Positions 61,371-61,392 of a stretch of DNA of 64,000 bases are shown piece after piece. The notes below the pieces were generated by a model. The model worked only from the letters and a program-made list of their open reading frames with translations, was not told the DNA's origin and did not search any database. Numbering within the stretch: position 1 is the stretch's first letter; every line of letters starts with the position of its first letter. The position numbers and the translations under genes are program-made. Location: NCBI RefSeq assembly GCF_036507355.1, contig NZ_AP027877.1, one strand, 5' to 3'. This stretch comes from Escherichia coli (lineage in GTDB: Bacteria > Pseudomonadota > Gammaproteobacteria > Enterobacterales > Enterobacteriaceae).

Positions 61371-61392
61371 GCCGGATGACGCGTCATCCGGC
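61371..61392. terminator. 22-bp perfect palindrome between the convergent SDR gene and osmC (candidate bidirectional terminator or REP-like unit)
   Basis: GCCGGATGACG/CGTCATCCGGC, 6 bp after the SDR stop and 6 bp before the osmC stop. Confidence 0.5.

Follow-up and report, generated by a model that had tools for sequence, protein, structure and literature searches.

The window, by which we mean the whole stretch of 64,000 nucleotides that was analysed, contains a bdhA-like gene for a 3-hydroxybutyrate dehydrogenase on the + strand and osmC on the - strand, which converge over a gap of 34 bp (61365-61398). The stop codon of the bdhA-like gene (TAA, + strand) is located at 61362-61364 and that of osmC (- strand) at 61399-61401. 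In this gap 22 bp are taken up by the sequence GCCGGATGACGCGTCATCCGGC at 61371-61392, leaving 6 nt on each side. Read from the window sequence, all 11 positions of the one half are complementary to the other and the element is a perfect 11+11 palindrome. The original prediction, which described a perfect 22-bp palindrome filling most of the convergent gap, was thus borne out by the sequence. The bdhA-like gene is the last gene of a cluster whose first gene, encoding a LysR-family regulator, lies next to ddpF. The features at both edges of the cluster were as follows.

53656-54582, + strand: ddpF, the left flanking gene (from the ORF list); convergent with lysR here and with osmC in K-12
54579-54582, + strand: GTAG that includes the stop codon TAG of ddpF and is followed at once by a half-REP-like sequence (read from the sequence)
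54583-54597, + strand: left-edge motif GACGCGGCATCCGGC, a 14/15 direct repeat of 61378-61392 that looks like the y-type REP 3' arm
54583-61376, no strand: segment of 6,794 bp found in ~4% of E. coli genomes; K-12-type genomes have a 34-nt filler instead
54619-55509, - strand: LysR-family regulator, first gene of the cluster, convergent with ddpF; the left motif lies in the 36 bp between the two
60594-61364, + strand: 3-hydroxybutyrate dehydrogenase gene (bdhA-like), last gene of the cluster (ORF list and RefSeq annotation of an identical locus)
61365-61370, + strand: 6-nt spacer GTGTTC separating the hairpin from the bdhA stop codon; lineage variants GAGTTC and AAGTTC
61371-61376, no strand: outer left arm GCCGGA of the palindrome, present in cluster-bearing genomes only; the K-12-type deletion has its right end in this arm
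61371-61392, no strand: perfect 22-bp palindrome GCCGGATGACG/CGTCATCCGGC, predicted to form an RNA stem of 9-11 bp on either strand
61377-61392, no strand: right part of the palindrome, TGACGCGTCATCCGGC, the 3' flank of osmC, common to essentially all E. coli including the K-12 type and the B2 type
61393-61398, - strand: 6-nt spacer AATGCT (+ strand letters) separating the osmC stop codon from the hairpin; variants AACGCT and ATCACT
61399-61830, - strand: osmC, convergent with bdhA (ORF list and RefSeq annotation; its 3' ends in K-12 are from Term-seq)

The palindrome occurred once in the window, even when 3 mismatches were allowed, and it was the longest perfect palindrome of the 64 kb, the runner-up having arms of 8 bp. 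One perfect palindrome with 8-bp arms, CCATTTCATGAAATGG, was noted at 46768-46783. When the window was simulated with a first-order Markov model, arms of at least 11 bp appeared in 11 of 300 simulations (~4%). By its length alone the palindrome is mildly unusual, and the length leaves room for chance.

The conservation of the element gave a clearer answer. In an E. coli allele with a 96.8% identical cluster the stem was kept while both 6-nt spacers had changed. The stem was invariant across eight E. coli-type sequences, among which the sole change within the element was that of a central G to A, in the loop. At the osmC locus a 27-nt exact match was found across the spread of E. coli genomes sampled, and the element occupied a median of 1 place per genome (5402 genomes). 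A functionless palindrome arising by chance would agree with the ~4% of simulated 64-kb windows that hold arms of this length, but it would leave unexplained that the element is exactly centred in a 34-bp convergent gap, that the stem is conserved between variable spacers and that a hairpin with the same foot lies in the same gap across Escherichia and Citrobacter. We concluded that a chance origin is ruled out because of this conservation and not because of the length, and we consider its remaining probability to be negligible.

Relation to REP elements

REP elements of E. coli are imperfect palindromes of 30-40 nt with a GTAG at the 5' side and a mismatch in the stem, and they occur in hundreds of copies (PMC3333891). 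Approximately 60% of them lie between convergent genes (bioRxiv 10.64898/2026.03.23.713779). The palindrome carries the foot of the y-type REPs, GCCGGAT...ATCCGGC, followed by A as in the E. coli y-type REP/BIME units, and shares their extragenic position at the 3' ends of convergent genes. In other respects it differed from these units. Whereas they span 30-40 nt, contain an AA/GC mismatch, carry a GTAG/CTAC tag and are present in multiple copies, the palindrome measures 22 nt, its stem is perfect and its flanks read GTTC/AATG on the + strand and CATT/GAAC on the - strand, with neither GTAG nor CTAC. Its median of one place per genome is far from the high copy number of the family. The canonical REP sequence CTTATCMGGCCTAC, searched in the window with up to 2 mismatches, gave one match at chance level and none at the locus.

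In a search of the Rfam models with 91 nt, the palindrome gave, next to chance hits, a single match far below threshold, to RF02564 (naRNA4, derived from REP325), with a score of 13.4 bits against a gathering threshold of 59.5 and an E value of 1.6. The two sequences aligned as GCCGGAU[AA]GGCG[UUUA]CGCC[GC]AUCCGGCAA (naRNA4) and GCCGGAU--GACG----CGUC--AUCCGGCAAU (palindrome), i.e. the palindrome corresponds to a y-type REP hairpin from which the AA/GC mismatch and the loop are missing. The K-12 gap produced only chance matches in the Rfam scan. A feature table covering 49 kb of K-12 had 0 repeat_region rows, and this copy of the table may carry no REP features at all; in the RepRanger supplements osmC was not mentioned.

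All orthologous bdhA-osmC gaps, in Escherichia as well as in Citrobacter, were found to hold a hairpin with the same foot, as listed here.

E. coli: GCCGGATGACGCGTCATCCGGC
Divergent Escherichia L007, and L152: as E. coli, with the central G replaced by A (loop)
Citrobacter sp. FP75: GCCGGATGCGGCGTCGCATCCGGC
Citrobacter sp. Cu233: (CCT)GCCGGATGCAGCATCGCATCCGGC(AGG)
C. youngae and C. werkmanii: GCCGGATAAGACG-TGGT/TAGT-CGCATCCGGC, with a GATAAG asymmetry typical of REPs

In the Citrobacter-type gap (metagenome contigs L134, L140 and L116) the number of REP units was either one or two, depending on the sequence, a variation that is typical of BIME loci. Three Citrobacter-type metagenome contigs had two units, the second one with a canonical GTAG, e.g. 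GTAGGCCGGATAAGACGAAGTCGCATCCGGC. When 15 units from Escherichia and Citrobacter were aligned, GCCGGAT and CATCCGGC were invariant, and the inner part varied in length and in a sequence that resisted alignment. An invariant foot offers no evidence from covariation, and the variation of the inner stem could reflect turnover of REPs and not structural selection. The REP ancestry of the palindrome is deduced from the common foot and the common position. Its inner sequence is different from that of the Citrobacter REPs, so that it may instead have had an independent origin or be the result of a replacement.

Going by these sequence comparisons, the palindrome is REP-derived and not a canonical REP, and we chose this term because length, tag, mismatch and copy number all depart from the family. 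The description as REP-like in the original prediction was therefore adequate for the y-type foot and for the extragenic convergent site, but it does not extend to a GTAG, a stem mismatch, the full length or multiple copies. The y-type foot, the REP-typical position and the GTAG-tagged, copy-variable REPs in the same gap of Citrobacter-type contigs could also be taken to mean that the palindrome is a bona fide REP/BIME unit, potentially mobile and a substrate of TnpA_REP (RAYT). TnpA_REP requires both the GTAG and the stem mismatch, and perfected palindromes are neither bound nor cleaved (PMC3333891); by these published determinants the palindrome should be invisible to the enzyme. Together with the short 22-nt unit without a tag by its foot, the single place per genome, the lack of canonical REP tails elsewhere in the window and the low naRNA4 score, this makes a mobile unit highly improbable.

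The symmetry of the element could alternatively be that of a DNA operator, a site for a dimeric regulator such as the LysR-type protein of the cluster. Perfect dyad symmetry over 22 bp and outer half-sites that are conserved across genera are what such a site would display, but the element is located where both genes end, and no promoter-like site was seen in its vicinity. Moreover, the spacing of the half-sites shifts by 5 nt among the orthologues (units of 22 to 27 nt), unlike the fixed geometry of a dimer site, and what is conserved as half-sites is no more than the REP foot. We give hardly any credence to an operator.

The segment between ddpF and osmC

The genes between ddpF and osmC were taken from an E. 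coli genome annotated in RefSeq whose junction is identical to that of the window. They comprise lysR (- strand), ctfA and ctfB (CoA-transferase subunits A and B), an acetyl-CoA C-acetyltransferase (thiolase), a 3-hydroxyacyl-CoA dehydrogenase, a GntP permease and the 3-hydroxybutyrate dehydrogenase. No integrase, transposase or tRNA was annotated within the cluster at this identical locus. The gntP ORF of the window (59191-60582) is intact and encodes 463 aa; in strain 503025 (L002 6442-7833), whose junction is 100% identical to that of the window, the annotation gives gntP as a pseudogene interrupted by an internal stop.

Relatives of the dehydrogenase were searched using one genome per species. 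The nearest ones belonged to the divergent Escherichia L007 (93% amino-acid identity) and to five Citrobacter genomes (86-88%), and the order ddpD-ddpF-lysR-ctfA-ctfB-thl-hadh-gntP-bdhA-osmC was complete in all six of them. Compared with C. youngae (L008), the proteins of the cluster were 82-95% identical, those of ddpD and ddpF 79-80% and that of osmC 94%, a divergence that fits co-divergence of the cluster with its flanking genes. The GC content was 53.5% for the cluster and 52.7% for the ddp operon.

The limits of the segment were defined by comparison with genomes that lack it. On the left side, homology to the cluster-lacking genomes stopped at 54582, the final base of the ddpF stop codon. 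On the right side, a megablast search of the junction against 5426 complete E. coli genomes returned full-length matches in 227, and in genomes sampled from the remainder the homology began at 61377, inside the left arm. The right joint relative to K-12, and likewise to ST131, is thus 61376/61377, within the left arm of the palindrome.

The left joint coincides with the second motif. Just past the ddpF stop codon TAG (54580-54582), GCGGCATCCGGC was found at 54586-54597; the original prediction had placed a second REP-like motif near 54588-54600, and the motif proved to be real although its position needed this correction. The similarity to the palindrome extends beyond the 15-nt direct repeat to 26 nt at 81% identity (repeat family D6, pair I5). 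The motif had no hairpin of its own (fold z = -0.14) and gave no match to a REP model in the Rfam scan. Either the GTAG at 54579-54582 is a coincidence or it once tagged a REP that has since decayed, and the stretch 54579-54597 looks like a REP stripped of its 5' arm and loop. In the divergent Escherichia L007 the gap between ddpF and lysR is longer, 60 nt, and its tail TTATCAGGCTTAC resembles an inverted REP. We also noticed that the last 143 nt of ddpF (54440-54582) are split into deep haplotypes, the window having 97.9% identity to O157:H7 but 88.8% to K-12-like strains, a divergence of the ddpF 3' end far above that usual for an E. coli core gene.

In K-12, ddpF directly neighbours the convergent osmC, and the 55-bp gap between them reads, in the orientation of the window, TAG AGATGCTAACAACGCATCAGGCATTCACGCGCCT GACGCGTCATCCGGC AATGCT TTA. 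Of the palindrome, K-12 has retained the right 16 nt (TGACGCGTCATCCGGC), and the left motif has a counterpart of weak similarity there, GCATCAGGCATT; the comparison of the K-12 ddpF-osmC region therefore did not refute the original prediction. Among the 5426 genomes, the K-12-type allele (ddpF-55 bp-osmC) was found in 4058 and a B2-type allele (dosP-189 bp-osmC) in 1117. The cluster was present in 230-231, including E24377A and strains of O145:H28; 226 of the cluster-bearing genomes had it at an identity of at least 99% and a few at ~97%.

Two REP-like motifs exactly at the two joints could be scars of attachment or duplication left by a horizontally acquired island. Such an island would be in line with the 14/15 direct repeats at 54583-54597 and 61378-61392 and with the presence of the cluster in merely ~4% of the E. 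coli genomes. Beyond the boundary repeats, the hallmarks of an island were missing: mobility genes, a tRNA and an atypical composition were all absent, the cluster matching its neighbours in GC content, and the syntenic site of the related species is occupied, as the gene order with both flanks is conserved in Citrobacter and the divergent Escherichia at a divergence similar to that of the flanks. An empty site with a single copy of the repeat was likewise not seen. When a synthetic junction representing the product of clean excision from repeat to repeat was compared with the 5426 genomes, no match in a single piece was obtained; the best matches were two-piece only and all carried 34 extra nt. 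We regard acquisition as very improbable. Judged by gene order and sequence divergence, the cluster was shown to be ancestral to Escherichia and Citrobacter and not an acquired island. Because the cluster is syntenic in the relatives, with a divergence like that of its flanks and the same GC content, the K-12 state is a deletion. The proposal that the REP-like edges mark joints of acquisition or deletion therefore stands in so far as both joints fall at the motifs, but not for acquisition.

The best reading for the genomes without the cluster is one old deletion of 6.8 kb, which began directly behind the ddpF stop codon and reached into the left arm of the palindrome. Simple recombination between the 15-bp direct repeats was rejected as the route of this deletion, as the best matches to the clean junction all carry the 34-nt filler. 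A short-word BLAST search for the source of the filler in the window, 49 kb of K-12, L007 and L008 found the filler itself only. A local alignment of the filler with the left gap gave GCATC[C/A]GGC[T]ATT, a weak similarity with p ~0.05, and an alignment with the 3' end of bdhA was no better than with shuffled sequence.

The B2-type gap holds 40 nt that are identical to the K-12 filler plus the right arm, as well as a 25-nt internal fragment of ddpF, and is therefore derived from the K-12 allele. The B2-type genomes are without the entire ddp operon, their 25-nt piece of ddpF adjoining filler of the K-12 type. In the ST131 dosP-osmC gap (L005 1334-1522) the ddpF fragment matches 54128-54152 of the window, and the B2 gap contains a REP-looking hairpin, GCCTGATGTG...CGCATCAGGC, which is built partly from the ddpF remnant. 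Two individual rearrangements were also observed. In strain G5 (L006 1443-1515) a one-off deletion fused ddpF to the 3' part of osmC and removed the hairpin, and in strain BEC1-S17-ESBL-07 (L088 8609-9394) a deletion from inside gntP to just before adhP took out bdhA, the palindrome, osmC, bdm, sra and maeA.

Hairpin and mRNA 3' ends

A stretch of 56 nt with the palindrome was predicted to fold at -21.8 kcal/mol on the one strand and at -19.9 kcal/mol on the other (z ~ -3), i.e. a GC-rich stem-loop is expected in either RNA. A U-tract after the stem was found on neither strand, the tails being AAUGCUUUACG (+) and GAACACUUACUG (-). A terminator scan of 54000-62500 did not list the palindrome, and the orthologous hairpins of Citrobacter had no U-tracts.

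The palindrome could still be a classical bidirectional intrinsic (Rho-independent) terminator, efficient by itself for both transcripts. The strong GC-rich stem on both strands close to both stop codons of convergent genes would suit this function, many convergent pairs of E. coli use bidirectional terminators, and 78 REPs lie within 306 predicted ones. Since there is no U-tract on either side, since the scan omitted the palindrome and since the Citrobacter hairpins have no U-tract either, a classical intrinsic terminator is unlikely. A Rho region of K-12, described below, lies ~640 nt beyond the related hairpin on the osmC strand and suggests read-through, which also speaks against efficient termination by the hairpin alone. 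Accordingly, the bidirectional terminator suggested in the original prediction holds for the placement, which is where a two-way 3'-end hairpin would sit, but not for the classical intrinsic type.

Published data for K-12 were available for the osmC transcript. By Term-seq the dominant osmC 3' ends are at 1557105 (LB, OD 2.0) and 1557103 (M63) (PMC7815308 supplementary file 1). These positions are 49 and 47 nt past the stop codon, and in the predicted fold of the K-12 osmC 3' UTR they form the 3' foot of a composite stem of 16 bp, in which the retained half of the palindrome, ACGCGUCAGGC, pairs with the adjacent REP-like relic GCCUGAUGCGU. The K-12 osmC-ddpF hairpin shares with the palindrome the same 16 nt, equally far from the osmC stop codon, and the osmC 3' ends lie at its foot. 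In contrast to the palindrome, these 16 nt pair mainly with the relic juxtaposed by the deletion (GCCTGATGCGT on the osmC strand). A Rho termination region was reported at 1557696 (NC_000913.3, + strand), on the osmC strand and antisense to ddpF, with a Rho score of 7.8 and p = 5e-11 (PMC7815308 supplementary file 2). It lies ~640 nt past the osmC stop codon, inside ddpF, which suggests that K-12 osmC transcripts read through the hairpin into ddpF; the table assigns the Rho region to no transcript.

The K-12 data agree with descriptions of REP325, with the frequent location of REPs between convergent genes and with the collision model for convergent transcripts. REP325 is a partial Rho-dependent terminator and a stabiliser of mRNA (bioRxiv 10.64898/2026.03.23.713779). 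As the element between yjdM and yjdN from which naRNA4 derives, it resembles the palindrome in the type of hairpin and in the proposed role in the 3' UTR, a partial stop aided by Rho with protection of the upstream mRNA; unlike the palindrome, which is one short hairpin between convergent genes, it is an array of 12 hairpins between tandem genes. At convergent genes, the nascent stem-loop positions head-on collisions of the polymerases (bioRxiv 10.1101/2022.10.23.513370). The bidirectional terminators of convergent pairs found by SEnd-seq are like the palindrome in that one palindromic stem-loop serves two transcripts a few nt from both stop codons. In the SEnd-seq collision model the stem-loop is needed to place the collisions; the palindrome has a U-tract in neither direction. 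Ribosomes can be stalled, and translation down-regulated, where fewer than 16 nt separate a REP from a stop codon, according to Liang et al. 2015 as cited in PMC12306157. On the other hand, Harris et al. found that genes with a terminal REP show no general gain in half-life.

The function proposed here for the palindrome was carried over from K-12, where the hairpin is a different, composite one, and from the REP literature. On this analogy the palindrome is most likely a two-way hairpin at the RNA 3' end, which would act as a block to exonucleases and as a partial terminator aided by Rho or by collisions of polymerases. The structure, position and conservation of the palindrome and the 3' ends in K-12 are supported by data; from these we infer that in the cluster-bearing strains the bdhA and the osmC mRNA both have their 3' ends set by the intact palindrome. 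With a distance of only 6 nt to either stop codon, it may also affect terminating ribosomes.

Taken as a whole, we consider it rather probable that the palindrome is a fossil y-type REP at an old REP site, that it forms a 3'-end hairpin shared by both genes and that the cluster was lost by deletion. The palindrome between the convergent genes bdhA and osmC would have kept the foot GCCGGAT...ATCCGGC, and the loss of the GTAG tag, the mismatch and the loop would have left a short, perfect, single-copy hairpin that is probably no longer mobile. The bdhA and the osmC transcript would both run into it and the same stem would fold in each RNA. Without a U-tract this stem would terminate poorly alone, but it could block 3'-to-5' exonucleases and so give a defined and protected 3' end; it may in addition pause the polymerase, with Rho or head-on collisions completing termination. 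At 6 nt past each stop codon, a terminating ribosome would have to melt the stem, which might dampen translation. One old deletion took the 6.8 kb, and in K-12 the surviving 16 nt pair, in the predicted fold, with the REP-like relic to form the hairpin at the end of the osmC mRNA.

A more detailed joint scenario is conceivable, though we hold it to be doubtful. It proposes that a REP was perfected by intrastrand template switching (quasi-palindrome correction), thereby losing the mismatch for TnpA_REP and the tag, and was frozen in this state; that the hairpin acts as a symmetric two-way attenuator which sets both 3' ends and stalls ribosomes; and that its left arm later became the breakpoint of the 6.8-kb deletion in ~96% of E. 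coli, by which the osmC 3' end was rebuilt from two REP relics.

The palindrome is one more instance of the well-known REP-type 3' hairpin between convergent genes and in itself has little mechanistic import. Of wider relevance is that the 3-hydroxybutyrate/acetoacetate cluster between ddpF and osmC is to be read as ancestral and lost by most E. coli, and not as acquired. In addition, the intact 22-bp palindrome and the composite hairpin of K-12, made from the surviving half, constitute a natural pair of alleles for the question of how REP-type hairpins set mRNA 3' ends. On the other side of osmC, upstream of the gene, a further perfect palindrome with 7-bp arms, GGCAAATATTTGCC, was observed at 62091-62104 beside a terminator-like site on the - strand.
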